The position numbers and the translations under genes are program-made. A stretch of 64,000 nt of DNA, from contig AL929603.2 in the NCBI GenBank assembly GCA_000002445.1, forward strand, positions 544,001 to 608,000. The letters are read 5' to 3'. The first letter of the stretch is position 1. Every line of letters begins with the position of its first letter. Source of the DNA: Trypanosoma brucei. Taxonomy: Eukaryota. This document shows, piece after piece, positions 33,440 through 55,242 of this stretch. A model generated the notes under the pieces. It saw only the letters and a list, made by a program, of their open reading frames with translations. It was not told where the DNA came from and searched no databases.

Positions 33440-33765
33440 AAAGTGTGACAACGTCGCACCATGTGTAGGTTTTCATTTACGTTCTTTCTTTCTTTTGTGA
33501 ATTTGTTTTCTGTCTCAAATGTTTTTAATTCGCTTGGGACCTATGTTTTTCTTGTTTTTTTGCTCACCCTTTGTGTAGGAGGCACCCTGTCACGTCTGTG
33601 GTTGCGTGTATGCCTTCCTTCCCCTTATTCGCTTCTTCCTGTCGTGTCACACCTCTTTCTCTCTCTCCCTTTCCGCCTTTTCTTTCAATCTTGTTTTCTC
33701 GACCAGCCCTACTAGAGGAGAAAGAATAGTAACCCTTTCATCAAAGAAAATAGTTCAAACGAATT

Positions 33766-35094
33766 ATGCGCGAAATCGTCTGCGTTCAGGCTGGCCAATG
33801 CGGTAACCAGATCGGCTCAAAGTTCTGGGAGGTGATCAGTGACGAGCACGGTGTGGACCCCACAGGTACCTACCAGGGTGACTCTGACCTGCAGCTGGAG
33901 CGCATCAATGTGTACTTTGATGAGGCAACGGGAGGTCGCTATGTGCCCCGCTCCGTGCTGATTGATCTGGAGCCAGGTACAATGGACTCCGTACGTGCTG
34001 GCCCCTATGGTCAGATCTTCCGCCCCGACAACTTCATCTTTGGACAGTCTGGCGCCGGCAACAACTGGGCAAAGGGCCACTACACGGAGGGTGCGGAACT
34101 GATCGACTCTGTGCTCGATGTGTGCTGCAAGGAGGCGGAGAGCTGTGACTGCCTCCAGGGCTTCCAGATCTGCCACTCCCTTGGTGGTGGTACTGGCTCC
34201 GGCATGGGTACGCTGCTCATCTCGAAGCTTCGCGAGCAGTACCCTGACCGTATCATGATGACTTTCTCCATCATCCCATCCCCCAAGGTGTCCGACACTG
34301 TCGTCGAGCCGTACAATACGACTCTCTCCGTGCACCAACTTGTGGAAAACTCCGATGAGTCGATGTGCATTGACAACGAGGCACTGTACGATATTTGCTT
34401 CCGCACCCTGAAACTGACAACACCAACGTTCGGTGACCTGAACCACTTGGTGTCTGCTGTTGTGTCCGGCGTCACCTGCTGCCTGCGCTTCCCTGGTCAG
34501 TTGAACTCTGACCTCCGTAAGTTGGCTGTGAACCTTGTCCCATTCCCGCGTCTGCACTTCTTCATGATGGGCTTCGCCCCGCTGACCAGCCGCGGCTCGC
34601 AGCAGTACCGCGGTCTCTCCGTGCCCGAGCTAACGCAGCAGATGTTCGATGCGAAAAACATGATGCAAGCTGCAGATCCTCGTCACGGCCGCTACCTGAC
34701 AGCGTCTGCACTCTTCCGCGGCCGCATGTCGACGAAGGAGGTTGATGAGCAGATGCTGAACGTGCAGAACAAGAACTCGTCCTACTTCATTGAGTGGATC
34801 CCGAACAACATCAAGTCCTCTGTTTGCGATATCCCACCCAAGGGACTCAAGATGGCTGTCACCTTCATTGGCAACAACACCTGCATCCAGGAGATGTTCC
34901 GCCGTGTGGGAGAGCAGTTCACCCTCATGTTCCGTCGCAAGGCGTTCTTGCACTGGTACACTGGCGAGGGTATGGACGAGATGGAATTCACGGAGGCAGA
35001 GTCCAACATGAACGATCTCGTGTCTGAGTACCAGCAGTACCAGGATGCCACGATTGAGGAGGAGGGCGAGTTCGACGAGGAGGAGCAATACTAG
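33766..35094 (+). CDS. Beta-tubulin (copy 3).
   Basis: Identical protein, with one synonymous change (GGC>GGT near the start). Confidence 0.97.
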
Positions 35095-35725
35095 ACGCGG
35101 ACGGGGCATTTCCCGTTCGTCATTAGCAGTAGGTAATGAAGATGTTTGTTTCTCGTCCCCTTTCTCCTTCGTCCTTCTGTCATTTTGTTCTTTTGTGTTT
35201 ATGTTTTGTTGTTTTTTTCTTTAATTTTTTTTTTCTTCCACGTTTGTGTACATCCGCGCGCCACTCTATTCAGAGAGCCACGGATAGTAGAGGAGGTGGG
35301 AAGGGTATATGAGGGACACGCGTACCATGATGTGGGATGTATTGGGGTCCCTGTCTGTCCTTACGTGACTATGTATGAACCGTCACGTGTAAGATGAGCT
35401 AGTGAGATCAACAGTACAACTCATCAACACGCCTTCTTCTCGTTAAATGTACACAATCTTGATCCTCCACCTTTATGGGTCCCATTGTTTGCCTCTTCCG
35501 CTGTGTGGAGTGCGCCTACACGCACTTCTCACTTCGTAAGTGGTGGTGGCGTAAGTATTCCCTAATGTTGACTCTATGTTCTCCTCTCCTCACCCCCTCG
35601 CGGTGCTGATTTCTGACAGATCTTCAAACACTAGTTTAAGCAAAGGACTATTCATCCGTTTATATTAGCAACAGTAGGTACTAGCACCACTAACAACAAC
35701 AACAAAGCACTTCTATTTATTTATC

Positions 35726-37081
35726 ATGCGTGAGGCTATCTGCATCCACATTGGTCAGGCTGGTTGCCAGGTTGGTAACGCCTGCTGGGAATTGTTCTGC
35801 CTGGAACACGGCATTCAACCCGATGGTGCGATGCCCTCTGACAAGACGATTGGCGTTGAGGATGATGCGTTCAACACCTTCTTCTCTGAGACTGGTGCTG
35901 GCAAGCACGTTCCCCGCGCGGTGTTCTTGGACCTGGAGCCAACAGTGGTGGATGAAGTGCGCACTGGCACGTACCGCCAGCTGTTCCACCCCGAGCAGCT
36001 GATCTCCGGCAAGGAGGATGCGGCCAACAACTACGCTCGTGGCCACTACACCATTGGTAAGGAGATCGTCGACCTCTGCCTGGACCGCATCCGCAAGCTC
36101 GCTGACAACTGCACTGGTCTTCAGGGCTTCCTCGTGTATCACGCCGTCGGCGGTGGCACTGGTTCTGGCCTGGGTGCGCTGCTCTTGGAGCGCCTCTCCG
36201 TGGACTATGGCAAGAAGTCCAAGCTCGGCTACACGGTGTATCCATCACCGCAGGTGTCGACGGCTGTCGTGGAGCCCTACAACTCTGTGCTCTCGACACA
36301 CTCACTTCTGGAGCACACCGATGTTGCTGCGATGCTTGACAATGAAGCAATTTATGATTTGACTCGCCGCAACCTCGATATTGAGCGCCCCACGTACACC
36401 AACCTGAACCGCCTCATCGGTCAGGTGGTTTCCTCGCTGACAGCGTCCCTCCGCTTCGACGGTGCATTGAACGTGGATCTGACAGAGTTCCAGACAAACC
36501 TTGTGCCGTACCCACGTATCCACTTCGTGCTGACAAGCTATGCACCAGTCATCTCCGCAGAGAAGGCCTACCACGAGCAACTCTCTGTCTCTGAGATCTC
36601 GAACGCTGTGTTTGAGCCCGCCTCCATGATGACAAAGTGCGACCCCCGCCACGGCAAGTACATGGCGTGCTGCCTCATGTACCGTGGTGACGTTGTGCCA
36701 AAGGATGTGAATGCTGCCGTCGCGACCATCAAGACGAAGCGCACGATTCAGTTCGTGGACTGGTCTCCCACAGGCTTCAAGTGCGGTATCAACTACCAGC
36801 CACCCACGGTGGTGCCAGGTGGTGACCTTGCCAAGGTGCAGCGCGCGGTATGCATGATCGCCAACTCCACGGCCATCGCAGAGGTGTTCGCTCGTATTGA
36901 CCACAAATTCGATCTCATGTACAGCAAGCGCGCCTTCGTGCACTGGTACGTCGGTGAGGGTATGGAAGAGGGTGAGTTCTCCGAGGCCCGTGAAGACCTT
37001 GCAGCACTTGAGAAGGACTACGAAGAGGTTGGTGCCGAGTCCGCGGATATGGACGGTGAGGAGGATGTGGAGGAGTACTAG
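35726..37081 (+). CDS. Alpha-tubulin (copy 3).
   Basis: Identical protein. Confidence 0.97.
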
Positions 37082-37407
37082 AAAGTGTGACAACGTCGCA
37101 CCATGTGTAGGTTTTCATTTACGTTCTTTCTTTCTTTTGTGAATTTGTTTTCTGTCTCAAATGTTTTTAATTCGCTTGGGACCTATGTTTTTCTTGTTTT
37201 TTTGCTCACCCTTTGTGTAGGAGGCATCCTGTCACGTCTGTGGTTGCGTGTATGCCTTCCTTCCCCTTATTCGCTTCTTCCTGTCGTGTCACACCTCTTT
37301 CTCTCTCTCCCTTTCCGCCTTTTCTTTCAATCTTGTTTTCTCGACCAGCCCTACTAGAGGAGAAAGAATAGTAACCCTTTCATCAAAGAAAATAGTTCAA
37401 ACGAATT

Positions 37408-38736
37408 ATGCGCGAAATCGTCTGCGTTCAGGCTGGCCAATGCGGCAACCAGATCGGCTCAAAGTTCTGGGAGGTGATCAGTGACGAGCACGGTGTGGAC
37501 CCCACAGGTACCTACCAGGGTGACTCTGACCTGCAGCTGGAGCGCATCAATGTGTACTTTGATGAGGCAACGGGAGGTCGCTATGTGCCCCGCTCCGTGC
37601 TGATTGATCTGGAGCCAGGTACAATGGACTCCGTACGTGCTGGCCCCTATGGTCAGATCTTCCGCCCCGACAACTTCATCTTTGGACAGTCTGGCGCCGG
37701 CAACAACTGGGCAAAGGGCCACTACACGGAGGGTGCGGAACTGATCGACTCTGTGCTCGATGTGTGCTGCAAGGAGGCGGAGAGCTGTGACTGCCTCCAG
37801 GGCTTCCAGATCTGCCACTCCCTTGGTGGTGGTACTGGCTCCGGCATGGGTACGCTGCTCATCTCGAAGCTTCGCGAGCAGTACCCTGACCGTATCATGA
37901 TGACTTTCTCCATCATCCCATCCCCCAAGGTGTCCGACACTGTCGTCGAGCCGTACAATACGACTCTCTCCGTGCACCAACTTGTGGAAAACTCCGATGA
38001 GTCGATGTGCATTGACAACGAGGCACTGTACGATATTTGCTTCCGCACCCTGAAACTGACAACACCAACGTTCGGTGACCTGAACCACTTGGTGTCTGCT
38101 GTTGTGTCCGGCGTCACCTGCTGCCTGCGCTTCCCTGGTCAGTTGAACTCTGACCTCCGTAAGTTGGCTGTGAACCTTGTCCCATTCCCGCGTCTGCACT
38201 TCTTCATGATGGGCTTCGCCCCGCTGACCAGCCGCGGCTCGCAGCAGTACCGCGGTCTCTCCGTGCCCGAGCTAACGCAGCAGATGTTCGATGCGAAAAA
38301 CATGATGCAAGCTGCAGATCCTCGTCACGGCCGCTACCTGACAGCGTCTGCACTCTTCCGCGGCCGCATGTCGACGAAGGAGGTTGATGAGCAGATGCTG
38401 AACGTGCAGAACAAGAACTCGTCCTACTTCATTGAGTGGATCCCGAACAACATCAAGTCCTCTGTTTGCGATATCCCACCCAAGGGACTCAAGATGGCTG
38501 TCACCTTCATTGGCAACAACACCTGCATCCAGGAGATGTTCCGCCGTGTGGGAGAGCAGTTCACCCTCATGTTCCGTCGCAAGGCGTTCTTGCACTGGTA
38601 CACTGGCGAGGGTATGGACGAGATGGAATTCACGGAGGCAGAGTCCAACATGAACGATCTCGTGTCTGAGTACCAGCAGTACCAGGATGCCACGATTGAG
38701 GAGGAGGGCGAGTTCGACGAGGAGGAGCAATACTAG
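37408..38736 (+). CDS. Beta-tubulin (copy 4).
   Basis: Identical protein. Confidence 0.97.
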
Positions 38737-39367
38737 ACGCGGACGGGGCATTTCCCGTTCGTCATTAGCAGTAGGTAATGAAGATGTTTGTTTCTCGTCC
38801 CCTTTCTCCTTCGTCCTTCTGTCATTTTGTTCTTTTGTGTTTATGTTTTGTTGTTGTTTTCTTTAATTTTTTTTTTCTTCCACGTTTGTGTACATCCGCG
38901 CGCCACTCTATTCAGAGAGCCACGGATAGTAGAGGAGGTGGGAAGGGTATATGAGGGACACGCGTACCATGATGTGGGATGTATTGGGGTCCCTGTCTGT
39001 CCTTACGTGACTATGTATGAACCGTCACGTGTAAGATGAGCTAGTGAGATCAACAGTACAACTCATCAACACGCCTTCTTCTCGTTAAATGTACACAATC
39101 TTGATCCTCCACCTTTATGGGTCCCATTGTTTGCCTCTTCCGCTGTGTGGAGTGCGCCTACACGCACTTCTCACTTCGTAAGTGGTGGTGGCGTAAGTAT
39201 TGCCTAATGTTGACTCTATGTTCTCCTCTCCTCACCCCCTCGCGGTGCTGATTTCTGACAGATCTTCAAACACTAGTTTAAGCAAAGGACTATTCATCCG
39301 TTTATATTAGCAACAGTAGGTACTAGCACCACTAACAACAACAACAAAGCACTTCTATTTATTTATC

Positions 39368-40723
39368 ATGCGTGAGGCTATCTGCATCCACATTGGTCAG
39401 GCTGGTTGCCAGGTTGGTAACGCCTGCTGGGAATTGTTCTGCCTGGAACACGGCATTCAACCCGATGGTGCGATGCCCTCTGACAAGACGATTGGCGTTG
39501 AGGATGATGCGTTCAACACCTTCTTCTCTGAGACTGGTGCTGGCAAGCACGTTCCCCGCGCGGTGTTCTTGGACCTGGAGCCAACAGTGGTGGATGAAGT
39601 GCGCACTGGCACGTACCGCCAGCTGTTCCACCCCGAGCAGCTGATCTCCGGCAAGGAGGATGCGGCCAACAACTACGCTCGTGGCCACTACACCATTGGT
39701 AAGGAGATCGTCGACCTCTGCCTGGACCGCATCCGCAAGCTCGCTGACAACTGCACTGGTCTTCAGGGCTTCCTCGTGTATCACGCCGTCGGCGGTGGCA
39801 CTGGTTCTGGCCTGGGTGCGCTGCTCTTGGAGCGCCTCTCCGTGGACTATGGCAAGAAGTCCAAGCTCGGCTACACGGTGTATCCATCACCGCAGGTGTC
39901 GACGGCTGTCGTGGAGCCCTACAACTCTGTGCTCTCGACACACTCACTTCTGGAGCACACCGATGTTGCTGCGATGCTTGACAATGAAGCGATTTATGAT
40001 TTGACTCGCCGCAACCTCGATATTGAGCGCCCCACGTACACCAACCTGAACCGCCTCATCGGTCAGGTGGTTTCCTCGCTGACAGCGTCCCTCCGCTTCG
40101 ACGGTGCATTGAACGTGGATCTGACAGAGTTCCAGACAAACCTTGTGCCGTACCCACGTATCCACTTCGTGCTGACAAGCTATGCACCAGTCATCTCCGC
40201 AGAGAAGGCCTACCACGAGCAACTCTCTGTCTCTGAGATCTCGAACGCTGTGTTTGAGCCCGCCTCCATGATGACAAAGTGCGACCCCCGCCACGGCAAG
40301 TACATGGCGTGCTGCCTCATGTACCGTGGTGACGTTGTGCCAAAGGATGTGAATGCTGCCGTCGCGACCATCAAGACGAAGCGCACGATTCAGTTCGTGG
40401 ACTGGTCTCCCACAGGCTTCAAGTGCGGTATCAACTACCAGCCACCCACGGTGGTGCCAGGTGGTGACCTTGCCAAGGTGCAGCGCGCGGTATGCATGAT
40501 CGCCAACTCCACGGCCATCGCAGAGGTGTTCGCCCGTATTGACCACAAATTCGATCTCATGTACAGCAAGCGCGCCTTCGTGCACTGGTACGTCGGTGAG
40601 GGTATGGAAGAGGGTGAGTTCTCCGAGGCCCGTGAAGACCTTGCAGCACTTGAGAAGGACTACGAAGAGGTTGGTGCCGAGTCCGCGGATATGGACGGTG
40701 AGGAGGATGTGGAGGAGTACTAG
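39368..40723 (+). CDS. Alpha-tubulin (copy 4).
   Basis: Identical protein, with two synonymous differences (~39982, ~40536). Confidence 0.97.
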
Positions 40724-41049
40724 AAAGTGTGACAACGTCGCACCATGTGTAGGTTTTCATTTACGTTCTTTCTTTCTTTTGTGAATTTGTTTTCTGTCTC
40801 AAATGTTTTTAATTCGCTTGGGACCTATGTTTTTCTTGTTTTTTTGCTCACCCTTTGTGTAGGAGGCACCCTGTCACGTCTGTGGTTGCGTGTATGCCTT
40901 CCTTCCCCTTATTCGCTTCTTCCTGTCGTGTCACACCTCTTTCTCTCTCTCCCTTTCCGCCTTTTCTTTCAATCTTGTTTTCTCGACCAGCCCTACTAGA
41001 GGAGAAAGAATAGTAACCCTTTCATCAAAGAAAATAGTTCAAACGAATT

Positions 41050-41949
41050 ATGCGCGAAATCGTCTGCGTTCAGGCTGGCCAATGCGGCAACCAGATCGGC
41101 TCAAAGTTCTGGGAGGTGATCAGTGACGAGCACGGTGTGGACCCCACAGGTACCTACCAGGGTGACTCTGACCTGCAGCTGGAGCGCATCAATGTGTACT
41201 TTGATGAGGCAACGGGAGGTCGCTATGTGCCCCGCTCCGTGCTGATTGATCTGGAGCCAGGTACAATGGACTCCGTACGTGCTGGCCCCTATGGTCAGAT
41301 CTTCCGCCCCGACAACTTCATCTTTGGACAGTCTGGCGCCGGCAACAACTGGGCAAAGGGCCACTACACGGAGGGTGCGGAACTGATCGACTCTGTGCTC
41401 GATGTGTGCTGCAAGGAGGCGGAGAGCTGTGACTGCCTCCAGGGCTTCCAGATCTGCCACTCCCTTGGTGGTGGTACTGGCTCCGGCATGGGTACGCTGC
41501 TCATCTCGAAGCTTCGCGAGCAGTACCCTGACCGTATCATGATGACTTTCTCCATCATCCCATCCCCCAAGGTGTCCGACACTGTCGTCGAGCCGTACAA
41601 TACGACTCTCTCCGTGCACCAACTTGTGGAAAACTCCGATGAGTCGATGTGCATTGACAACGAGGCACTGTACGATATTTGCTTCCGCACCCTGAAACTG
41701 ACAACACCAACGTTCGGTGACCTGAACCACTTGGTGTCTGCTGTTGTGTCCGGCGTCACCTGCTGCCTGCGCTTCCCTGGTCAGTTGAACTCTGACCTCC
41801 GTAAGTTGGCTGTGAACCTTGTCCCATTCCCGCGTCTGCACTTCTTCATGATGGGCTTCGCCCCGCTGACCAGCCGCGGCTCGCAGCAGTACCGCGGTCT
41901 CTCCGTGCCCGAGCTAACGCAGCAGATGTTCGATGCGAAAAACATGATG
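41050..41949 (+). pseudogene. Beta-tubulin copy 5, truncated after codon ~300 (…FDAKNMM) by a retrotransposon insertion.
   Basis: Identical to the other beta copies up to 41949. It then reads into the ingi 5' end (…[18 protein letters not shown]…) instead of …[10 protein letters not shown]…. Confidence 0.9.
41938..41949. repeat. Target-site duplication (left copy) AAAAACATGATG.
   Basis: The same 12-mer recurs at 47168-47179, immediately after the element's A-tail. A 12-bp TSD is characteristic of ingi/RIME. Confidence 0.8.
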
Positions 41950-42070
41950 CCCCTGGTGATGCTGGCCACCTCATCGTGGTGCCAGGGTCCAGTACCTCGC
42001 CTATGCGTGGGAAGCCAAGAGCCGGCAACCGCCATCTTTGTAAGGAAGTGCCTGCGGGTGCGTCATCGTT

Positions 42071-42934
42071 TTGCCATGGGACAAGCAGAGTCAGGCTGAG
42101 ACAAAGTGTTATCAATGTCTGTCCTTAGGTACGTGCAGACGTGCCATCAGTAGTATTATTCGCGCCCAGAAACTGATGAATGGTGATGTGGAAAGTAAAT
42201 TAGACCCTGTATTCCGTGGCACCCAGTGGAACTGCGCTGCGCTCACACAGGGCAAGCGGTTAGCTCTTCATAGGATGCTCATTGAGGATAGGGTAAGCTT
42301 CTGCTTACTGTGCGAAACGAATTTTTCCTCTCTGGAAGAACAGATTCTCCATCCTCTACTTTTGCAACACGACGGAGCAGAAAGGGATGCAAACGGTGGT
42401 GGAGTATCTATTCTGATACAAAAAGTCCTCCGGGTGGAAGTCGGTGAGAAGAAAGTGGGACAGCTAGAACATGTAAGCGCCACTATCCACGTATCAGAGG
42501 AAGACAAACTAACGCTCACGTCAGCCTATTTTCCAAGAGGACGAAGCGCTGTGAACTTGGGAAAACTTGTCGCATTGAAGAGAGATGTGCAATACGTCAT
42601 AGGCGCCGACGTGAATTTACATTTGTGTCTATGGGATAGAGAGGTCCCTCCTGATGCAGGAGGTGAAGCAATGACTACTTGGTGTGTTGATACAGGTTAT
42701 ATTGTAGCAAATACAGCTGACCGCACCAGATATGACTATGCACGAAACCTCGGATCGTCCCCTGACGTAACGCTGAACCGGGAATGTCAAATTATCAATT
42801 GGACGGCTACAGAGACACCGGACAGTGATCACTACGTCATCTTATTTCAGTCATCGTCGGAAACGATGAGATCCCGATTGCCCTTGCTTGTCTGGACCGA
42901 GCGCTATTCTCTTGAAAGAAAGCCGACTGGGTGA
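42071..42934 (+). pseudogene. ingi ORF fragment: degenerate apurinic/apyrimidinic-endonuclease-like domain.
   Basis: Position immediately downstream of the RIME-like 5' end. It is not in frame with the downstream RT segments. Confidence 0.6.
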
Positions 42935-43625
42935 AATTCAATGCCTACACCAAGCAAGAAAGCAAGAAGATCGGAAACTCGGGGAAAATACACAAAAACG
43001 CCCCCATTTTAGGTAATATTATCCGGGACGCGACAGTGAAAGCTGTCCCCCGCGGCTCCTTTTTCCAAAAGCCTTTGTGAACGAAGGAGTTAACAGAGAG
43101 AGATGAGAAGATACGATGCGTCCAACATCTTCGAGAGAGGCCATCTCTTGTCTCCCAGCGAAAAAAACTGCTAATGGAAGTCTCCACCAAACGATGGCAT
43201 GAGACTTGCAACAAGTTTGCAGTTTCTGAGAGTAACAGTTGGCATATCGTAAAGAATGTTTTCTCACAAAAAACCCTAGTCACACCAGCAGTGAGGGCAG
43301 ACAACAGAATCCTGGCGCAGAAGCAGCACGCACAGAGTCTCATAGATATATACCCTGAATAGTCGAAGCGGCACCCGGATGTTGCGCAAGCTCCTTCGAT
43401 TTCCCTCCCAAAACAGATGCCATACAGGCGTATCTCCATGGGAGAATTGAACACAACCCTAAGGTATATACCAAATGGTTCTGCTCCTGGAAACAATATG
43501 CAGTGGATTGAGAGGCTCTCAAGCACCTCAACAAATATGGAAGGCGTTTACTACCACGATTATTCAATCGCAGTTTATACGCTGGTGAGGATCCGCAACC
43601 GTGGAAAAAAGGTGTCATCATTCCA

Positions 43626-44545
43626 TTGTTGAAAGTGGGAAAGCCATCCATTGACCTAGCATCCTTCAGGCCTGTTACCTTAACAAGTACGGTCTTAAAG
43701 GTCATGGAAAAGATTGTCTGCGCAAGGATCCGTAACACTGTCGAATCGAAATTGAAAGTGCAGCAATCAGGATTCAGCACGGGTAACTCTACACTAGACC
43801 AGCTCTTACACCTAATGGCAGCTCTATGTAGACCTCACCACGATGACAGGAAAGGGGCTGTATTTGCTTATTACCCGGAGGCATTCGACACGGTAGATCA
43901 TGCAACAGCGGTTCGTGCCATGCAGGAAATGGGAATACCAACTTACACTGTGAAATGGACCGCTACCTTACTACAGGGAAGAAAAAAACAAGTAAGGGTA
44001 AAGAAGGTGTTTTCGGGGAACAGGGAGTTCACACGAGGGGTTCCACAAGGTACAGTCCTAGGTCCCCTCTTATCATAGTGGTGAACTCTCTCAGTAAACG
44101 CCTCAACCAAATTCCTGGTCTAGGACATGGCTTCTTCGCAGACGATCTAACTCTCTCATGTCGTCACTCTGATAGAAACATAGTCCAGGAAACGCTCCAA
44201 GCAGGGCTAAACGCAGTAGCAGCATGGAGCCGAGAGACTTATATGGGCATTAATGTGGATAAGACCAAATACACACTATTTGGCGCCAAGAACAGAAACT
44301 CACTACTTCTGTTGGTGAACGGGAAACCTATCGATGAAGATAGAAATCCCAAGATACTTGGCATCACATTACAGTCATATAGTGGTTTCTCCACCCATGT
44401 CGAGGGGGTTAAAAAGGCAGTGGATATGCGACTACTGCAACTTGCTGCAATCTCATCAACTTCTTGGGGACCACGAACCAACACGATCAGGACGTTCTAC
44501 ATTGCCCTGACTCGTGCAAAGATCTTGTACGGCGTGGCGATTTAG
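43626..44545 (+). pseudogene. ingi ORF fragments: reverse-transcriptase domain, interrupted by a frameshift near 43955-44078.
   Basis: RT motifs FRPVTL..., GVPQGTVLGPLLS and F-A-D-D (YxDD-like). Two overlapping frames are needed to read through. Confidence 0.75.
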
Positions 44546-47167
44546 TATCATAATGCCAACTACTTCAATCAGGAAGAGCTAGAGTGTTCCCAAAACAGAG
44601 CGTGCAGAATTCTCTCCGGAACGGTGAGAGGTTGAAACAGTACAGACGCGCGCCTAGAGGCCAACTTAACGTCCCTTAGAGAAGCCGCGACGATACGGGG
44701 TCTGAAGTACCTGATACGCTGCCAGCCACGAGATAGATACCTAAAAGAGAGTGCGGAGTTAGTATATCACCCAAGTTATCCTGTCCGAAAGTTACTGAAT
44801 GATGTAAAGCGTGAATACCCACAACTTCAGGTAGAATCCGCACACACCACAGAGTGGTGTCCATATTTCTGGATACAGCGAACAGATGTCTGTTTCACTA
44901 CGCCATTCCCCCGAATGTGAACAGAGACTCGGAGGAAGAACTCAAACGTGAGACATCCGAAAGATGGATAAAGCGCCGTTATTAGAAGAAAAGGGCAATA
45001 ACCCTGTCGCTCTATCACACTACGAAGTGTGGACAGACGGATCTGTAACACTGGAGGAAAATCAGGAGCGGCAGCTCTCATCGTCAAGAATGGCAAACTC
45101 CTGCACAAAGTGCTCGAAGGAACGGGACGACTTGCATGCAGCTATAGAGCTGAATGTGTAGTCCTAATAATTGGCCTGAAACAACTGTCCAAAGAGATCG
45201 ATAAAGCAGAAAAACAAAACTTCCGATTATTGATATTTACGGACTCATGGTCAATGGTAGCAGCTCTGCACGCGGGCCCGCTTACAGTTACAGACACAGT
45301 ACTGCGCTAAATATGGACACTACTCATCCAACTCCAAAGTAAAGGAGGACGGATTCGTATTCAGTTCATATTTGGTCACTGTGGAATAGCGGGTAATGAG
45401 CAAGCTGACGCAGCAGAGCAACCACAAATGCGAACTGCATGGATACCGGAGGTGGTTGCAGCAGCGAAAAGGCTGCTGCGCACTACAAGGGAAAAGCCAC
45501 AAACACATAGGGCCACACTTACTGGACACTGGAAGAACACAAACCTCAAGACCTCGCTGTCCAGAAAAGAATAAACCCTACTGACTCAACTCCGCACGGG
45601 TGCAGCACCTACGTACGGTTGGGTGAACAGGAAATTGAACCCTAATATCCCCAACACATGCAGATGGTGTTGCAATGTGGCAAAAAGCCAGACAGTGGAG
45701 CTCGTGAGTGTGAGACCAACATCCACACGTGCAAGCGATCCAACAGTTTGCCCAATTTGTGGGCTGCGATGCTCGAACCGGCAAAATGGCGCTATACACA
45801 TGCAACGAACCCATGGAGTCCAATACGAGCAGGGCAAACGGCGACTCAAATTCCCGCGAGGAGATGGAGGAGGATTCCAATTTGGCCCTCCCACCTCCCG
45901 AACCGCCGCCAAACACAGAAACACCGCAAACCGCTGCGGATACTATTATGTATCCCTGCTTGATCTGCGAGAGGACCTTCAAATCGAAGACTTGGCAAAC
46001 AAGGCACAGAGAGACCGCACACCCGGGTGTAGCACCACCGCGCGGAACAACAGAAAACCCAGAGGGAAGTGAACAAACAACATAATCGGAGAACACTCTT
46101 CAGTGTGCCCTGTGTTCTTTTGTACACAAGTCCAAGGGTGGATTAACAAACCACCGAAGAGTCCAGCACCCAGATCAAAAGGTCACGATAGCAACCAGGA
46201 AGAGCGGAAGGGATTCGGCGAATCGACGGGAAGTAGAGGAGGAGGAACCATCAGCTACCTCGCTCCATTGTACATGCTGCGATTTCATAGAGAAATCAAA
46301 GAGTGGGTTAGCTGCGCACTGTAGGTATAGGCACCTCCAAACAGTCTAGTCTATCACTACAGTTTCAAAAAAGAGACCAAGGACCCCCACTCCAGAGAAT
46401 AGATCGCAGAAAGTACGGACGGAAAGAGTCGAAGGAAGATATCAGTGTGATCACTGCGAGAAGACATACGCCACACCATCCACTCTAATACGCCACTACA
46501 GGGCGAAAAATAGTGGAAGCGTATGTCAGCTCTCTAGCACCGAGGCAGCTCCGGCAGGACGACGATACGTGAAGGTTACAGTGCCGACGCATGAGTGTAC
46601 CGAGTGCGGCACCAAGTGCTACTCAAAAGCAGGACTAACGCGTCATCAACAAACTGCACATGGTTTGAAGCTGGAAACCCCTCTCCCCCAGATGCATGAA
46701 TGCGAAGAGTCACCTAGGCACCTACTCGTGTACCCAGGACTCGCTACACTGCGTCAACGATTCTTCAAGGATGACACACCTCTCGAAAAGTTGCTGTACA
46801 GTGAAGAGTTAACAAAATTCCTACTGGAACTGGAAAAACTCTCACAAAAGGTACCGCCAGAAAGTAAAGGCCGAACGCCGGATATCGAATCAGCTGACCC
46901 TCGTAGTGATTGCCCTCCGTCTAGGAGATATCAAACTTCTGTCTCCCCCCCCCCTGTCGGATCGCGTGGGAAGCGGAAACGCTCACCATTTCCTCGATGA
47001 GCCCCTGTGTACACAGTTAGTCTCCCCCGTCCATATTAAGACGGAGCCTGGGTCTCGTCAGCCCAGAAACTCTCCCCCCTTCACCACAAAGCAGGCACCA
47101 ACGTTCGAATAGGACTGCTGGTGGTACGCTGCCAAATATCTCTTTGAGATAATTGCGCGTTATATTA

Positions 47168-47179
47168 AAAAAACATGAT
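47168..47179. repeat. Target-site duplication (right copy) AAAAACATGATG.
   Basis: Direct repeat of the beta-tubulin sequence at 41938-41949. Confidence 0.8.
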
Positions 47180-47180
47180 G

Positions 47181-48140
47181 CCCCTGCACCCGCAGCAGAT
47201 TCCCTCAAAGAGCTGACGGTTGCAGGGGCTTGGCTTCCCCCGCATAGGCGAGGTACTGGACCCTGGTACCACGATGAGGTGGCCGGCTGAGCCAGGGTGC
47301 GGAAGCCAAGGGCCTGCGACACCCGAAAGGGCTAACAAGCTTAGGTTTCTACTTGTTGGGAAAACGGATAGTGGAAACCACCCTAGTGGTTGGTTGGTCG
47401 CTCGCACTGTGCGCTACAGTACTGCGGATGCAGAGATTGGACCTTGCAAGGGTTTAATTTCGCACGATTGCAAGCTTCTGCTGTTACTGTGTGGATACTT
47501 TGAGCGCAATCCTGGACCCCTCCGGTTTGTGCAGCAGAACGTTAACGGTGTCTCAGCAGTAAAGCTATCAAGCCTACTTGCTCTAGATGCAGACGTCTAT
47601 CTTCTTCCGGAGGTGAAGAAGTTGCGTGAGGCGTCTCGCATCTGTAAGGTCCCGCCATACACAGTTTACTGTAGCCCCCCGAACGCTCGGGGTGGAAGAG
47701 TTGCCATCTTGGTGCACCAACGAAGCAGCATCCAGACCAGGAGTGTGACATGGAAAGCACTCCCAAACGACACTGGCATCAAAGCCGTAACTGTGAAATT
47801 GTGATAGGTAATACTCATCTGGGTATAGTGAATGTTTACATCCCCCCACCACCGAGCATCACTGGATCCTTCGCTACCCTTCTGCAGACCTTGGAAAATA
47901 ACTGCTCTATTATTGAGGGAAACTTCAATGTTTTCCACCCACTATGGTGGAGCGAGGTCGGTCAATAAAACAGGTCGGACAAGTTCTTTTACCTGTCCAC
48001 CTATGCATATTCGAACTGCAAAACATCCTTGACGCGGTAACACGAAGCTAAGGCAATCAGAAAAGCGCCCTGGACCTCACCCCGTCTCGTTTGGATGATG
48101 CAATGCAACGGACCACGCTATTGTAGCTAGACAGCGATCA
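47181..48140 (+). mobile_element. 3'-truncated ingi/RIME-like 5' fragment (~1 kb) with a rearranged (partly inverted) 5' terminus and a degenerate endonuclease domain.
   Basis: It starts 'CCCCTG...' like ingi. 'GGTACTGGACCCTGGTACCACGATGAGGTGGCC' is the reverse complement of the ingi 5' end. The ORF 47220-47804 contains the APE-like motifs LRFVQQNVNG and DADVYLLPEVK, and continues after a frameshift at 47750-47968 (GNFNVFHPLWW). It ends abruptly where H3-repeat homology begins. Confidence 0.65.
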
Positions 48141-48495
48141 CAAAGGGATCACATTTATGCTCGAAAAAGCATGCGAAATGATTATTCTCATCCCCTTTAT
48201 CCCTAGCCTCTTCCACTTTCCAACTTCCCTCCTCTGCCTCCTCTCACCCTTTTGTTTTTGTATTTCCCTTTTATTTTACATTTTCACCCCACCATCAGCG
48301 TCCTTTCACTGGCTTTGTGGCACCGCTTCCTTCTTAGTAGCGGTTCTTTTGCACAACCGCATGCACACATACATCCCTTTGAATGTCATACCTCCCTCCT
48401 CTCTCTTTCTCTTTTTTTTTTCTGTTACATCTCATACTAGAAAGCTAAAAAGCTACTTTACCACAACTCTCAAACCAAGCAACAAACTAAAAGAC

Positions 48496-48897
48496 ATGTC
48501 GAGGACCAAGGAAACCGCCAGGACGAAGAAGACCATCACCTCCAAGAAGAGCAAGAAGGCCTCAAAGGGTTCTGATGCCGCATCTGGCGTAAAGACCGCC
48601 CAACGCCGCTGGAGGCCCGGCACCGTGGCACTCCGTGAAATCCGCCAGTTCCAACGCTCCACCGACCTGCTGCTACAAAAGGCACCATTTCAACGCCTGG
48701 TCCGTGAGGTGTCTGGTGCCCAAAAGGAGGGTCTGCGCTTCCAGAGTAGCGCTATTCTCGCCGCACAGGAAGCGACTGAGTCGTACATTGTGTCGCTGCT
48801 TGCCGATACCAACCGCGCATGCATTCACAGTGGGCGTGTGACAATCCAACCAAAGGACATTCACCTTGCCCTCTGCCTACGCGGTGAACGTGCATAA
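48496..48897 (+). CDS. H3: Histone H3 (copy 1), 133 aa.
   Basis: [25 protein letters not shown]...[53 protein letters not shown] is a trypanosomatid-type divergent H3. It is preceded by a polypyrimidine tract and an AG. The six-frame ORF is a spurious N-terminal extension. Confidence 0.93.
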
Positions 48898-49984
48898 GAA
48901 GGTACAGAAATGCGTAATTGAGTGAGTGAGTATGAATATGAGTAGGTGTGTGTGTATGTATGTATGTATGCGTGAGGGTCAGGGTTGAGACAAATATTCA
49001 GATTAGAGAAAGAAAGAAAGAGAGAGAGAGCACTGCAAAGCATGCATGCATGTATATGTATATATGTGTGTATGTTTATGTGCATGACCTTCTTTCTCTT
49101 TCCCCTTCTCCTCTCTGTTGCTCTCCTCTACGTTCCACTTGCATGCATAACACATACTTCCTTCTTGTAACTGCTCCCTTTCTCTCATTACACTGTGTAG
49201 CCTTTACTTTCTTTCCCCTCTTCCCCTCACTACAAAGACACTGTGTGTCCGACCCTCCTAACTTGCTCCTGCTCACAGCGGTTTCCAGTCGCATTAGCCA
49301 TCGTCACACGGTACCACACAATGATGCCTTGTGATTTGTTTTGCCTTTTGCTACTATTCATCGGAGGCCGTGCGTGGCGTGCGCGGATTGTTGTGCAGGT
49401 GTACCTGCCGGCGTGTCCCCGCTGCGCGGTTGGGGAAGAGACAAGTTTAGGGGGCTGTTGTGACACAGTTAGATTTTCCACGTCACCTCCAGCGGTGCGG
49501 ATGCCTCCACTTCAGGTGTGGTTCCCCATTCCCCCGTATATCTTTCTTTCTTTCTTTTCGTCTGCTCATTCCACTCTGGGTGCAATATCCGGGAGTGTGG
49601 AATAAGAGTTGAGATTGGGGTTAAGATGAGGGTAAAGGGGAGTGGAGGGGCGACGTGGGAGAGACGGATGGCCAGATGGAAAGGGAAAGAAAGGTGTGAA
49701 AGTGTGGAGGTAACGAGATATTGGGTGAGGGTGACTGATAGAGGACAGCATCTGTGAATGTGTGGTTACTCTTCTCCCCTTTATCCCTAGCCTCTTCCAC
49801 TTTCCAACTTCCCTCCTCTGCCTCCTCTCACCCTTTTGTTTTTGTATTTCCCTTTTATTTTACATTTTCACCCCACCATCAGCATCCTTTCACTGGCTTT
49901 GTACCACCGCTTCCTTCTTAGTAGCGGTTCTTTTGCACAACCGCATGCACACATACATCCCTTTGAATTTCATACCTCCCTCCT

Positions 49985-50036
49985 CTCTCTTTCTCTTTTT
50001 TTTTCTGTTACATCTCATACTAGAAAGCTAAAAAGC
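49985..50036 (+). promoter_or_regulatory. Polypyrimidine tract plus AG, a putative trans-splice acceptor region upstream of H3. The same element occurs in every H3 unit.
   Basis: 'cctccctcctctctctttctctttttttttctgttacatctcatactag' sits ~45 nt upstream of the H3 ATG. Trypanosomatid mRNAs are processed by SL trans-splicing at an AG downstream of a polypyrimidine tract. Confidence 0.5.
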
Positions 50037-50078
50037 TACTTTACCACAACTCTCAAACCAAGCAACAAACTAAAAGAC

Positions 50079-50480
50079 ATGTCGAGGACCAAGGAAACCG
50101 CCAGGACGAAGAAGACCATCACCTCCAAGAAGAGCAAGAAGGCCTCAAAGGGTTCTGATGCCGCATCTGGCGTAAAGACCGCCCAACGCCGCTGGAGGCC
50201 CGGCACCGTGGCACTCCGTGAAATCCGCCAGTTCCAACGCTCCACCGACCTGCTGCTACAAAAGGCACCATTTCAACGCCTGGTCCGTGAGGTGTCTGGT
50301 GCCCAAAAGGAGGGTCTGCGCTTCCAGAGTAGCGCTATTCTCGCCGCACAGGAAGCGACTGAGTCGTACATTGTGTCGCTGCTTGCCGATACCAACCGCG
50401 CATGCATTCACAGTGGGCGTGTGACAATCCAACCAAAGGACATTCACCTTGCCCTCTGCCTACGCGGTGAACGTGCATAA
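50079..50480 (+). CDS. H3: Histone H3 (copy 2).
   Basis: Identical protein. Confidence 0.93.
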
Positions 50481-51662
50481 GAAGGTACAGAAATGCGTAA
50501 TTGAGTGAGTGAGTATGAATATGAGTAGGTGTGTGTGTATGTATGTATGTATGCGTGAGGGTCAGGGTTGAGACAAATATTCAGATTAGAGAAAGAAAGA
50601 AAGAGAGAGAGAGCACTGCAAAGCATGCATGCATGTATATGTATATATGTGTGTATGTTTATGTGCATGACCTTCTTTCTCTTTCCCCTTCTCCTCTCTG
50701 TTGCTCTCCTCTACGTTCCACTTGCATGCATAGCACATACTTCCTTCTTGTAACTGCTCCCTTTCTCTCATTACACTGTGTAGCCTTTACTTTCTTTCCC
50801 CTCTTCCCCTCACTACAAAGACACTGTGTGTCCGACCCTCCTAACTTGCTCCTACTCACAGCGGTTTCCAGTCGCATTAGCCATCGTCACACGGTACCAC
50901 ACAATGATGCCTTGTGATTTGTTTTGCCTTTTGCTACTATTCATCGGAGGCCGTGCGTGGCGTGCGCGGATTGTTGTGCAGGTGTACCTGCCGGCGTGTC
51001 CCCGCTGCGCGGTTGGGGAAGAGACAAGTTTAGGGGGCTGTTGTGACACAGTTAGATTTTCCACGTCACCTCCAGCGGTGCGGATGCCTCCACTTCAGGT
51101 GTGGTTCCCCATTCCCCCGTATATCTTTCTTTCTTTCTTTTCGTCTGCTCATTCCACTCTGGGTGCAATATCCGGGAGTGTGGAATAAGAGTTGAGATTG
51201 GGGTTAAGATGAGGGTAAAGGGGAGTGGAGGGGCGACGTGGGAGAGACGGATGGCCAGATGGAAAGGGAAAGAAAGGTGTGAAAGTGTGGAGGTAACGAG
51301 ATATTGGGTGAGGGTGACTGATAGAGGACAGCATCTGTGAATGTGTGGTTACTCTTCTCCCCTTTATCCCTAGCCTCTTCCACTTTCCAACTTCCCTCCT
51401 CTGCCTCCTCTCACCCTTTTGTTTTTGTATTTCCCTTTTATTTTACATTTTCACCCCACCATCAGCATCCTTTCACTGGCTTTGTACCACCGCTTCCTTC
51501 TTAGTAGCGGTTCTTTTGCACAACCGCATGCACACATACATCCCTTTGAATTTCATACCTCCCTCCTCTCTCTTTCTCTTTTTTTTTTCTGTTACATCTC
51601 ATACTAGAAAGCTAAAAAGCTACTTTACCACAACTCTCAAACCAAGCAACAAACTAAAAGAC

Positions 51663-52064
51663 ATGTCGAGGACCAAGGAAACCGCCAGGACGAAGAAGAC
51701 CATCACCTCCAAGAAGAGCAAGAAGGCCTCAAAGGGTTCTGATGCCGCATCTGGCGTAAAGACCGCCCAACGCCGCTGGAGGCCCGGCACCGTGGCACTC
51801 CGTGAAATCCGCCAGTTCCAACGCTCCACCGACCTGCTGCTACAAAAGGCACCATTTCAACGCCTGGTCCGTGAGGTGTCTGGTGCCCAAAAGGAGGGTC
51901 TGCGCTTCCAGAGTAGCGCTATTCTCGCCGCACAGGAAGCGACTGAGTCGTACATTGTGTCGCTGCTTGCCGATACCAACCGCGCATGCATTCACAGTGG
52001 GCGTGTGACAATCCAACCAAAGGACATTCACCTTGCCCTCTGCCTACGCGGTGAACGTGCATAA
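51663..52064 (+). CDS. H3: Histone H3 (copy 3).
   Basis: Identical protein. Confidence 0.93.
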
Positions 52065-53254
52065 GAAGGTACAGAAATGCGTAATTGAGTGAGTGAGTAT
52101 GAATATGAGTAGGTGTGTGTGTATGTATGTATGTATGTATGTATGCGTGAGGGTCAGGGTTGAGACAAATATTCAGATTAGAGAAAGAAAGAAAGAGAGA
52201 GAGAGCACTGCAAAGCATGCATGCATGCATATATATATATGTGTGTATGTTTATGTGCATGACCTTCTTTCTCTTTCCCCTTCTCCTCTCTGTTGCTCTC
52301 CTCTACGTTCCACTTGCATGCATAACACATACTTCCTTCTTGTAACTGCTCCCTTTCTCTCATTACACTGTGTAGCCTTTACTTTCTTTCCCCTCTTCCC
52401 CTCACTACAAAGACACTGTGTGTCCGACCCTCCTAACTTGCTCCTACTCACAGCGGTTTCCAGTCGCATTAGCCATCGTCACACGGTACCACACAATGAT
52501 GCCTTGTGATTTGTTTTGCCTTTTGCTACTGTTCATCGGAGGCCGTGCGTGGCGTGCGCGGATTGTTGTGCAGGTGTACCTGCCGGCGTGTCCCCGCTGC
52601 GCGGTTGGGGAAGAGACAAGTTTAGGGGGCTGTTGTGACACAGTTAGATTTTCCACGTCACCTCCAGCGGTGCGGATGCCTCCACTTCAGGTGTGGTTCC
52701 CCATTCCCCCGTATATCTTTCTTTCTTTCTTTTCGTCTGCTCATTCCACTCTGGGTGCAATATCCGGGAGTGTGGAATAAGAGTTGAGATTGGGGTTAAG
52801 ATGAGGGTAAAGGGGAGTGGAGGGGCGACGTGGGAGAGACGGATGGCCAGATGGAAAGGGAAAGAAAGGTGTGAAAGTGTGGAGGTAACGAGATATTGGG
52901 TGAGGGTGACTGATAGAGGACAGCATCTGTGAATGTGTGGTTACTCTTCTCCCCTTTATCCCTAGCCTCTTCCACTTTCCAACTTCCCTCCTCTGCCTCC
53001 TCTCACCCTTTTGTTTTTGTATTTCCCTTTTATTTTACATTTTCACCCCACCATCAGCATCCTTTCACTGGCTTTGTACCACCGCTTCCTTCTTAGTAGC
53101 GGTTCTTTTGCACAACCGCATGCACACATACATCCCTTTGAATGTCATACCTCCCTCCTCTCTCTTTCTCTTTTTTTTTTCTGTTACATCTCATACTAGA
53201 AAGCTAAAAAGCTACTTTACCACAACTCTCAAACCAAGCAACAAACTAAAAGAC

Positions 53255-53656
53255 ATGTCGAGGACCAAGGAAACCGCCAGGACGAAGAAGACCATCACCT
53301 CCAAGAAAAGCAAGAAGGCCTCAAAGGGTTCTGATGCCGCATCTGGCGTAAAGACCGCCCAACGCCGCTGGAGGCCCGGCACCGTGGCACTCCGTGAAAT
53401 CCGCCAGTTCCAACGCTCCACCGACCTGCTGCTACAAAAGGCACCATTTCAACGCCTGGTCCGTGAGGTGTCTGGTGCCCAAAAGGAGGGTCTGCGCTTC
53501 CAGAGTAGCGCTATTCTCGCCGCACAGGAAGCGACTGAGTCGTACATTGTGTCGCTGCTTGCCGATACCAACCGCGCATGCATTCACAGTGGGCGTGTGA
53601 CAATCCAACCAAAGGACATTCACCTTGCCCTCTGCCTACGCGGTGAACGTGCATAA
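53255..53656 (+). CDS. H3: Histone H3 (copy 4).
   Basis: Identical protein, with one synonymous change (AAG>AAA, Lys). Confidence 0.93.
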
Positions 53657-54840
53657 GAAGGTACAGAAATGCGTAATTGAGTGAGTGAGTATGAATATGA
53701 GTAGGTGTGTGTGTATGTATGTATGTATGTATGCGTGAGGGTCAGGGTTGAGACAAATATTCAGATTAGAGAAAGAAAGAAAGAAAGAGAGAGCACTGCA
53801 AAGCATGCATGCATGCATATATATATGTGTGTATGTTTATGTGCATGACCTTCTTTCTCTTTCCCCTTCTCCTCTCTGTTGCTCTCCTCTACGTTCCACT
53901 TGCATGCATAACACATACTTCCTTCTTGTAACTGCTCCCTTTCTCTCATTACACTGTGTAGCCTTTACTTTCTTTCCCCTCTTCCCCTCACTACAAAGAC
54001 ACTGTGTGTCCGACCCTCCTAACTTGCTCCTGCTCACAGCGGTTTCCAGTCGCATTAGCCATCGTCACACGGTACCACACAATGATGCCTTGTGATTTGT
54101 TTTGCCTTTTGCTACTATTCATCGGAGGCCGTGCGTGGCGTGCGCGGATTGTTGTGCAGGTGTACCTGCCGGCGTGTCCCCGCTGCGCGGTTGGGGAAGA
54201 GACAAGTTTAGGGGGCTGTTGTGACACAGTTAGATTTTCCACGTCACCTCCAGCGGTGCGGATGCCTCCACTTCAGGTGTGGTTCCCCATTCCCCCGTAT
54301 ATCTTTCTTTCTTTCTTTTCGTCTGCTCATTCCACTCTGGGTGCAATATCCGGGAGTGTGGAATAAGAGTTGAGATTGGGGTTAAGATGAGGGTAAAGGG
54401 GAGTGGAGGGGCGACGTGGGAGAGACGGATGGCCAGATGGAAAGGGAAAGAAAGGTGTGAAAGTGTGGAGGTAACGAGATATTGGGTGAGGGTGACTGAT
54501 AGAGGACAGCATCTGTGAATGTGTGGTTACTCTTCTCCCCTTTATCCCTAGCCTCTTCCACTTTCCAACTTCCCTCCTCTGCCTCCTCTCACCCTTTTGT
54601 TTTTGTATTTCCCTTTTATTTTACATTTTCACCCCACCATCAGCATCCTTTCGCTGGCTTTGTACCACCGCTTCCTTCTTAGTAGCGGTTCTTTTGCACA
54701 ACCGCATGCACACATACATCCCTTTGAATGTCATACCTCCCTCCTCTCTCTTTCTCTTTTTTTTTTCTGTTACATCTCATACTAGAAAGCTAAAAAGCTA
54801 CTTTACCACAACTCTCAAACCAAGCAACAAACTAAAAGAC

Positions 54841-55242
54841 ATGTCGAGGACCAAGGAAACCGCCAGGACGAAGAAGACCATCACCTCCAAGAAGAGCAAG
54901 AAGGCCTCAAAGGGTTCTGATGCCGCATCTGGCGTAAAGACCGCCCAACGCCGCTGGAGGCCCGGCACCGTGGCACTCCGTGAAATCCGCCAGTTCCAAC
55001 GCTCCACCGACCTGCTGCTACAAAAGGCACCATTTCAACGCCTGGTCCGTGAGGTGTCTGGTGCCCAAAAGGAGGGTCTGCGCTTCCAGAGTAGCGCTAT
55101 TCTCGCCGCACAGGAAGCGACTGAGTCGTACATTGTGTCGCTGCTTGCCGATACCAACCGCGCATGCATTCACAGTGGGCGTGTGACAATCCAACCAAAG
55201 GACATTCACCTTGCCCTCTGCCTACGCGGTGAACGTGCATAA
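54841..55242 (+). CDS. H3: Histone H3 (copy 5).
   Basis: Identical protein. Confidence 0.93.

Follow-up and report, generated by a model that had tools for sequence, protein, structure and literature searches.

A full-length degenerate retroposon flanked by a 12-bp target-site duplication terminates the tubulin array of Trypanosoma brucei

The tubulin gene array in the analyzed window, a stretch of 64,000 nucleotides from T. brucei (contig AL929603.2, positions 544,001 to 608,000), ends in a full-length degenerate retroposon that belongs to the ingi/L1Tc clade and is flanked by a 12-bp target-site duplication. The insertion itself is documented by a full-length 5′ end, an A-run, and the perfect 12-bp duplication. 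Very probably, this element is a TbDIRE that was inserted by target-primed reverse transcription, likely as the second insertion at the same site in a nest of retroposons.

That a retroelement terminates this array has been published before. By the title of their paper, Affolter, Rindisbacher, and Braun (1989, Gene 80:177) reportedly described a cluster ending with a truncated beta gene that is interrupted by a retrotransposon-like sequence. Jackson, Vaughan, and Gull (2006; PMC1621084) reported that the T. brucei tubulin array ends in a retroelement, which they linked with the histone H3 array, and the arrangement found here agrees with theirs in that the retroelement terminates the alternating tubulin array beside the H3 array. 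They named the element RIME, whereas the sequence analyzed here contains a full-length 5.2-kb element of the coding type plus two more retroposon fragments.

Tubulin array end and structure of the element

Along the tubulin array, a beta open reading frame (442 aa) is each time succeeded by an alpha one (451 aa), and a truncated fifth beta-tubulin gene comes last (Table 1). As stated in a preliminary description of the window, this copy equals the others until the insertion point, with 100% identity from 41050 to 41950, and the 3′ boundary of the array is located at the element: the match to the tubulin unit ends at 41950, and self-BLAST revealed no tubulin similarity downstream of this position anywhere in the window. 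The intact beta-tubulin copies go on with ...ATGATGCAAGCTGCAG, copy 5 with CCCTGGTGATGCTGGCCACC..., so that the truncated gene reads into the element and yields an open reading frame of 349 aa (41050-42099). This “tubulin” open reading frame is a chimeric pseudogene. Its exact look-up in public assemblies gave no match; the annotation of T. b. gambiense DAL972 includes a product of equal length (L001, 15516-16565). The 3.6-kb and 1.6-kb arrays were identified by self-BLAST, the period limit of Tandem Repeats Finder being 500. The tubulin copy number in this assembly, 4.25 units, is untrustworthy; assemblies routinely collapse arrays of this kind.

Table 1. Features around the tubulin array end, in window coordinates
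Feature	Position	Strand	Basis
Beta/alpha-tubulin repeat units, four complete, 3642 bp each	26482-41049	+	Self-BLAST, 99.8-100% inter-unit identity; context
Fifth beta-tubulin gene, truncated, codons 1-300	41050-41950	+	100% identical to 37408-38308 (self-BLAST)
12-bp target-site duplication AAAACATGATGC, 5′ copy, native beta-tubulin sequence	41939-41950	+	
Full-length degenerate retroposon (probable TbDIRE type), 5219 bp, short 3′ A-run	41951-47169	+	Domains, frames, stops, divergence from ingi
79-nt signature of trypanosomatid retroposons at the 5′ end (Pr77 region)	41951-42029	+	64 of 79 positions shared with the 5′ end of a RIME in L008
Open stretch, AP-type endonuclease domain	42044-42931	+	Pfam Exo_endo_phos_2, E 4e-7, 30.3 bits, above cutoff
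Reverse transcriptase domain in two frames, frameshift near 44060	43512-44542	+	Pfam RVT_1, 68 + 32.9 bits
RNase H domain, two frames plus in-frame stop	45021-45442	+	Pfam RNase_H, E 4e-10, 40.4 bits, frame-stitched translation
C2H2 zinc fingers, at least 4-5, with interrupting stops at 46083 and 46347	45951-46661	+	Pfam zf-C2H2 family matches
12-bp target-site duplication AAAACATGATGC, 3′ copy	47170-47181	+	
Inverted copy of nt 1 to ~112 of a similar element, 116 nt, 5′ end toward the element	47182-47297	−	BLAST, alignments
Fragment of a third, different retroposon, degenerate endonuclease domain	47298-48178	+	Exo_endo_phos_2, 36.9 bits, stitched translation
Histone H3 tandem array, seven units of ~1586 bp	48179-59379	+	Self-BLAST; Pfam Histone, E 5e-36; context

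The endonuclease, reverse transcriptase (RT), RNase H, and zinc-finger domains and the short A-run of the preliminary description were all recovered by Pfam or in the sequence. Exo_endo_phos_2, RVT_1, RNase_H, and zf-C2H2 follow each other in the order known from ingi, all of them above the curated Pfam cutoffs, and the order is collinear with that of an ingi copy (tblastn). Degeneration over at least three frames was likewise evident, with the domains in three reading frames and with at least six frame changes and at least five in-frame stops along the domain path; positions 3-129 of the RVT_1 profile, for instance, are in one frame and positions 132-205 in another. The term “non-autonomous” used before is nevertheless wrong: the element is of the autonomous type, and this copy of it is dead. 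Rfam families at E ≤ 1 did not match anywhere in 41800-48300, and no matching family represents the HDV-like ribozyme/Pr77 region.

The structure is common to four Trypanozoon assemblies, as a comparison of strains for the insertion revealed. The junctions are shared with T. b. gambiense (5′ junction), T. b. equiperdum (both junctions), and T. equiperdum OVI (3′ junction), and the insertion is fixed in the Trypanozoon assemblies examined. A misjoin of a collapsed tubulin array to repeats during assembly would be in line with the routine collapse of such arrays and the untrustworthy 4.25 units, but identical junctions are present in three other independent assemblies, one of them with long contigs, which makes an artefact of this kind extremely improbable.

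Class of the element

Assignment of the element within its clade needs to consider that the 79-nt signature at its 5′ end is common to ingi, RIME, L1Tc, NARTc, DIRE, and SIDER (PMC2323293) and that a target-site duplication of 12 bp is the rule for the clade (PMC3820030). The element possesses the 5′ signature starting with CCCTGG, the four domains in order, and a 12-bp duplication with an A-rich 3′ end, which place it into this clade. The “canonical ingi/RIME 5′ terminus” claimed previously is therefore a signature general to trypanosomatid retroposons (PMC2323293), and 64 of its 79 positions agree with the 5′ end of the RIME in L008.

The previous identification as ingi did not stand either. 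When compared to a T. brucei ingi copy from L008, which is without a recognizable 5′ end and most of the endonuclease, amino acid identity was 47-56% for the RT, 44% for RNase H, 34-36% for the linker, and 30% for the zinc-finger region. All RT homologues were trypanosomatid retroposon RTs with at most 56% identity, and the best T. brucei match (56%) came from a 10-member cluster with at least 90% mutual identity, located on several chromosomes. Similarity to RIME/ingi at the DNA level was confined to nt 1-242 of the element (41951-42192; ~240-249 nt) with 72% identity, and the 3′ half of RIME/ingi, as present in L008, was not found at the 3′ end of the element (blastn, word size 7).

Tbingi (5250 bp, 1657-aa open reading frame, 115 copies) and its deletion derivative TbRIME resemble the element in length, domain order, CCCTGG start, 12-bp duplication, and A-rich 3′ end. 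Tbingi differs from the element, besides the divergence in all domains and at the 5′ end, in its near-identical RIME halves (5′ ~250 nt and 3′ ~250 nt). The element has neither these RIME-half ends nor high identity to the ~115 copies or their 1657-aa open reading frame, nor does it have the ingi4 target motif, AxxxxxxxTxxxGTxGGxTxxx^xTxTxxTxxxxx (PMC3820030): in a manual comparison to 41917-41950, most of the specified positions differed. The published ingi6 target pattern, TTTTxxxxxA^A, which precedes the ingi6-related TbDIRE2, was matched in part, with A^A and two of the four T's. TbRIME, the label used in PMC1621084, is a non-coding element of ~500 bp with ingi ends and was rejected as a candidate for this 5.2-kb element with coding remains; resemblance to RIME is limited to the signature-bearing pieces 41951-42192 and 47182-47297.

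TbDIREs, or Degenerate Ingi/L1Tc-Related Elements, are ~5 kb long and present in 73 copies in T. brucei (PMC3820030, Table S1). With 5219 bp, the 5′ signature, at least six frame changes, and at least five stops, the element agrees with the published definition (PMC3820030), and it shares with the TbDIREs the vestigial coding regions for endonuclease, RT, RNase H, and zinc fingers, the relationship to ingi at the protein level only, and the association with a synteny break. No contradictory feature was found, although the perfect 12-bp duplication is better kept than usual for vestigial elements. The sequence thus fits a TbDIRE and not a Tbingi, as set apart by one ingi copy, one RIME, and the published definition.

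Target-site duplication and retroposon nest in the 3′ flank

The 12-bp target-site duplication described previously exists as a perfect 12-mer at both ends, but the identity actually comprises 18 nt (41938-41955 and 47169-47186), and the second copy is located at 47169-47180 or 47170-47181, depending on the register. The register 41939-41950, preferred here, places the start of the element at CCCTGG, as in the RIME in L008, and the first-strand nick at A^A; the alternative, 41938-41949 and 47169-47180 (AAAAACATGATG), is equally compatible. This AAAAACATGATG occurs six times in the window, in the four intact beta-tubulin genes and at these two positions, with 0.03 occurrences expected by chance. 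T. b. equiperdum (L004) and T. equiperdum OVI (L009) have the 3′ copy without any change. Four to five A's of the 7-A run at 47167-47173 belong to the repeat, which leaves an A-tail of only two to three A's beyond the duplication. Both copies of the duplication are identical, and the element itself was therefore no substrate of ectopic exchange.

The check proposed in the preliminary description, whether the 12-mers are the sole direct repeat, gave a negative answer; other exact 12-mers (D7, D8) were found and arise by chance inside these 6.6 kb. The terminal 12-mer is significant because it resides at both termini and not because of its mere existence. A 22-nt similarity between 41906-41927 and 47179-47200 (77%) was judged to be chance; about 20 ten-mer seeds are expected in the region.

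The objection named in the preliminary description, that the flanking 12-mers might be part of the element and not of the host, is only half dismissed: the 5′ copy is native beta-tubulin sequence, but the 3′ copy lines up in register with the inverted fragment that follows, whose sequence there resembles the element (9/12, nt 110-121). If the 12-mer at 47169-47180 were internal sequence of an inverted element, with a coincidental match to beta-tubulin, its in-register similarity to nt 110-121 of the element and to GGCATCAT in RIME would be explained. This would nevertheless require an exact match to 13 nt of native beta-tubulin (AAAAACATGATGC) at a predetermined position, with a chance of about 1e-7 to 1e-6, while the element-derived match reaches only 9/12, and it is exactly there that the coding remnants end and the A-run is located. 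Such a coincidence is very improbable.

Directly repeated sequence continues after the 3′ 12-mer only with CCCTG, and the next ~112 nt are inverted. This inverted fragment is 85% identical over 103 nt to 41961-42061 (BLAST), forms a 95-nt inverted repeat (I1) of 84% identity, and agrees with the 79-nt signature of the element in 69 of 79 positions. The third retroposon fragment begins at about nt 55 of the signature and ends where the H3 repeat starts; its endonuclease has no significant similarity to that of the main element, and none was found beyond the signature. The H3 repeat contains histone genes annotated as 133-aa products in L004. A simple inversion between the short inverted repeats CCCTG/CAGGG and a snap-back duplication of the 5′ end of the third fragment were both rejected, the sequence after 47297 being neither nt 113 and following of the main family nor a mirror of 47182-47260.

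That the insertion created a tubulin pseudogene is correct insofar as a chimeric 349-aa open reading frame is left, but no beta-tubulin sequence follows the 3′ repeat, and the inverted retroposon 5′ fragment is located there instead. The gene was therefore probably truncated before the arrival of this element, which means that the element itself probably did not create the pseudogene. Because the 3′ flank is not beta-tubulin, a PCR across the site cannot yield an “empty” intact gene.

Origin of the locus and its meaning

In the most probable course of events, the endonuclease would have nicked the bottom strand at GCGA^AAAA, the T-rich 3′ end would have primed on the A-tail of the element RNA, and a second nick 12 bp downstream would have generated the duplication AAAACATGATGC, both nick positions being deduced from the sequence. 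The beta-tubulin gene had most likely been joined to retroposon sequence already before this copy landed, so that the element may be the second insertion at one target site, comparable to tandem arrangements sharing one target-site duplication. Tandem insertions at the same site with one duplication between them are documented for the ingi clade (PMC3820030). The locus is like these in having one 12-mer between the 3′ end of a retroposon and the next CCCTG... start, and it differs from them in the inverted 5′ fragment after CCCTG and in the absence of a third duplication and of the 3′ part of beta-tubulin. An older direct tandem element predicts a normal 5′ end after the shared duplication, but here this end is inverted. 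The inverted ~112 nt after CCCTG therefore need an extra event, namely, twin priming, inversion, or deletion.

Insertion into an intact last beta-tubulin gene may have made the pseudogene after all if a later microhomology-mediated deletion fused the 3′ copy of the duplication to a downstream, inverted, related element and thereby removed the 3′ part of beta-tubulin and most of the inverted element. Microhomology-mediated joining is a route on which trypanosomes rely. In reverse complement, the 12-mer (GCATCATGTTTT) agrees with nt 110-121 of the element, GCGTCATCGTTT, in 9 of 12 positions. Only one other site in the 5219 nt matches as well (1.3 sites expected), and the site at nt 110-121 coincides exactly with the point at which the inverted fragment ceases to be homologous, so that a join there puts the breakpoint at the duplication. 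However, the left breakpoint must fall within a few nucleotides of the end of the duplication, the microhomology is imperfect in the sole available family member, and the additional CCCTG shared behind both 12-mers would have to be accidental (~1/1000). We regard such a deletion as possible, albeit unlikely.

Alternatively, the 12-nt top-strand overhang (...AAAACATGATGC-3′) of an earlier insertion may have annealed near nt 110-125 of the RNA, with the full-length element inserted subsequently at the same nicks. [quoted passage not shown] The complementarity of 9/12 includes the 3′ end of the primer, and the same-site tandem insertions of the clade are also compatible with this sequence of events. 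Twin-primed 5′ inversions of human LINE-1 likewise have the duplication abutting an inverted 5′ segment and complementarity between the duplication and an internal priming site; this is a resemblance only, and the direct segment following here is from another family. Sequence 47298-48178 does not belong to the same RNA, twin priming is not known to have been described for ingi-clade elements, and we consider this origin rather improbable. In a wider form, the 12-nt overhang left in beta-tubulin by the retroposon endonuclease would have annealed to nt ~110-121 of retroposon RNA or DNA and primed or joined the inverted 5′ fragment, either through twin priming or through microhomology-mediated repair of the break, an aberrant event rather than a simple insertion that would have truncated the array and fused it to the H3-array region; this proposal is speculative and equally doubtful.

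The nest occupies the T. brucei-specific junction of the tubulin and histone H3 arrays. The copy has been decaying since its insertion, through frameshifts and stops, and nothing points to a function. Other trypanosomes in which gene order is otherwise conserved have neither the retroelement nor the H3 array (PMC1621084). At this lineage-specific break in synteny, the tubulin array ends in the nested remains of at least three retroposons.

The label of the element should be DIRE, neither ingi nor RIME, and beyond the correct annotation the importance of the finding is small. The perfect 12-bp duplication with the abutting inverted 5′ fragment is a record of repeated use of a single target site, and the locus might serve studies of the influence of the ingi clade on gene-order breakpoints. 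If annealing of the overhang truncated the array, this would be direct sequence evidence that breaks made by ingi-clade endonucleases create synteny breakpoints in T. brucei.

The 3' end of the tubulin array and the target site

Four complete beta/alpha-tubulin units of 3642 bp each were identified by self-BLAST of the window, followed by a fifth beta gene that was 100% identical to the other copies as far as position 41950. No tubulin similarity was found anywhere further downstream in the window by this search. Intact beta copies run ...AAAAACATGATGCAAGCTGCAG; copy 5 runs ...AAAAACATGATGCCCCTGGTGATGCTGGCCACC. The preliminary description, a retroposon with a target-site duplication (TSD) that closes the array and leaves a beta-tubulin pseudogene, was right in kind. 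The features are listed in the table.

Positions of the features in the window. The TSD positions follow the most economical reading.
Feature	Position	Strand	Description
Extra alpha-to-beta intergenic spacer	26166-26481		98%; before the first beta-tubulin gene
Beta/alpha-tubulin units	26482-41049		four complete units
Chimeric ORF	41050-42099		300 codons of tubulin followed by 49 read from the retroposon 5' end
5' TSD	41939-41950		AAAACATGATGC
Main element	41951-47169		degenerate retroposon, 5219 bp
3' TSD	47170-47181		AAAACATGATGC
Inverted fragment	47182-47297	minus	copy of nt 1-~112 of the main element's own 5' region, 84-87% identity
Third fragment	47298-48178	plus	different retroposon, abuts the inverted fragment, from about nt 55 of the signature (79-nt 5' stretch common to trypanosomatid retroposons)
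Histone H3 array	48179-59379		seven tandem units, ~1586 bp each, 98.8-99.5% identical

The 12-mer AAAAACATGATG occurs once per intact beta-tubulin gene (4/4), in the fifth copy (41938-41949), and at 47169-47180. These repeat positions and the self-BLAST confirmed a 12-mer at both ends of the element and beta identity up to the junction. The identity between the two sites spans 18 nt, AAAAACATGATGCCCCTG, rather than 12 nt. Because native tubulin sequence still includes the C following ATGATG, and the RIME in the reference locus L008 opens with CCCTGG, the most economical reading is a 12-bp duplication, AAAACATGATGC, that brackets the main element and is shifted by 1 nt from the register first described. 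A 12-bp TSD is the rule across the whole ingi/L1Tc clade (PMC3820030). Whether the flanking 12-mers are the only direct repeat had been named as a check; further exact 12-mers occur by chance in the same 6.6 kb, and the significance of this repeat is its position at both termini. Of the published ingi6 motif, the target site has A^A at the nick and two of the four T's; it does not fit the ingi4 (Tbingi) motif.

The extra spacer copy indicates that the array begins with a spacer and an intact beta gene. The chimeric ORF is annotated in the T. b. gambiense DAL972 locus (L001 15516-16565) as a 349-aa tubulin-domain protein; this database entry is likely the product of a pseudogene. Number and integrity of the tubulin units vary among assemblies (L001-L004): the DAL972 array includes tubulin gene fragments of 190, 175, and 303 aa, and that of T. 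b. equiperdum has many more units. For the window, the number of units probably reflects a collapsed array.

Decay and family of the main element

Pfam matches were obtained in the 5'-to-3' order AP-type endonuclease, reverse transcriptase (RT) over two frames, RNase H (on a frame-stitched translation), and several C2H2 fingers. The domain path runs through three frames; it changes frame at least six times and meets at least five in-frame stops, as anticipated for a degenerate ORF needing at least three frames. A database search with the RT returned solely trypanosomatid retroposon RTs, none of them above 56% identity. The best T. brucei match belonged to the abundant ingi family, here a cluster of ten RTs that are almost identical and lie on several chromosomes in T. 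b. equiperdum and T. b. gambiense.

The reference for comparison was L008, a locus with one such ingi copy and a RIME. Protein identity to this ingi copy was 47-56% for RT, 44% for RNase H, 34-36% for the linker, and 30% for the zinc-finger region. Similarity at the DNA level was limited to the first 242 nt of the main element (72%), the first 79 nt being 81% identical to RIME, and the RIME/ingi 3' half of L008 had no match in the main element. An assignment to canonical ingi, as made from the sequence alone, failed on the RT ceiling, the short DNA similarity, and the missing 3' half. The element fits the published Degenerate Ingi/L1Tc-Related Elements (DIREs), a ~5-kb class with about 73 members in T. 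brucei (PMC3820030).

Region 10465-12443 of L008 is another retroposon nest. Its RIME on the minus strand (11940-12443) adjoins the ingi copy, the 3' end of which (10465-10697) has an inverted match of 90% to the RIME 3' half, and the ingi 5' end is not recognisable.

Origin of the 3' junction

The sequence after the 3' 12-mer is not beta-tubulin. A clean insertion into an intact beta gene, as first described, therefore oversimplifies the site, where the remnants of three retroposons form a nest. The inverted fragment reaches exactly nt 1 of the main element. The third fragment encodes a degenerate endonuclease domain (36.9 bits), for which BLASTP showed no relationship to the endonuclease of the main element, and the H3 array starts exactly where this fragment is cut off.

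In target-primed reverse transcription, the DNA past the 3' TSD is what lay past the target before insertion. The two TSD copies do not differ, which indicates that the main element itself has not recombined. Since non-tubulin DNA follows the 3' TSD, retroposon sequence had most probably been joined to the beta gene before the main element arrived. The main element would then be a re-insertion at the same target site, like the tandem arrangements with one separating TSD described for this clade (PMC3820030).

The reverse complement of the 12-mer matched nt 110-121 of the main element at 9/12 positions. Two such sites were found in the 5219 nt versus 1.3 expected, and this one is exactly where the homology of the inverted fragment stops, which suggests a microhomology-guided event at the junction. 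Twin priming from the 12-nt overhang may have made the inverted fragment, or the junction may stem from microhomology-mediated joining with an inverted element. Each leaves one coincidence of ~1e-3 unexplained, so that both are ranked as unproven alternatives.

The main element and the inverted fragment also form an inverted repeat (95 nt, 84%; 41951-42045/47203-47297) around 5157 nt. With this layout, the element body could in principle invert; none of the other assemblies compared showed an inverted allele.

Other strains and earlier reports

The proposed comparison with other strains showed the insertion to be present. T. b. equiperdum GCA_003543875.1 matches the window exactly at both junctions, T. 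b. gambiense DAL972 at the 5' one, and T. equiperdum OVI at the 3' one. The structure is thus real and fixed in the available assemblies.

Strain differences within the main element are strongly clustered between 43150 and 45550 (window versus the T. b. equiperdum and T. b. gambiense loci, L004 and L001), with 16 mismatches per 300 nt common to both other strains at 43150-43450 and 21-47 per 300 nt in T. b. equiperdum only at 43750-44950. In the flanks and the other retroposon fragments, divergence is 0-0.6%. Such clustering resembles the outcome of ectopic gene conversion, with paralogous DIRE copies as donors, or else of an assembly error.

Affolter, Rindisbacher, and Braun (Gene 1989) reportedly found that the last beta gene of the cluster is truncated, with a retrotransposon-like sequence interrupting it. 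According to Jackson et al. 2006, a retroelement, termed RIME, ends the T. brucei array and is associated with the H3 array; other trypanosomes, in which gene order is otherwise conserved, have neither (PMC1621084). The feature, for which no function is indicated, was already known.
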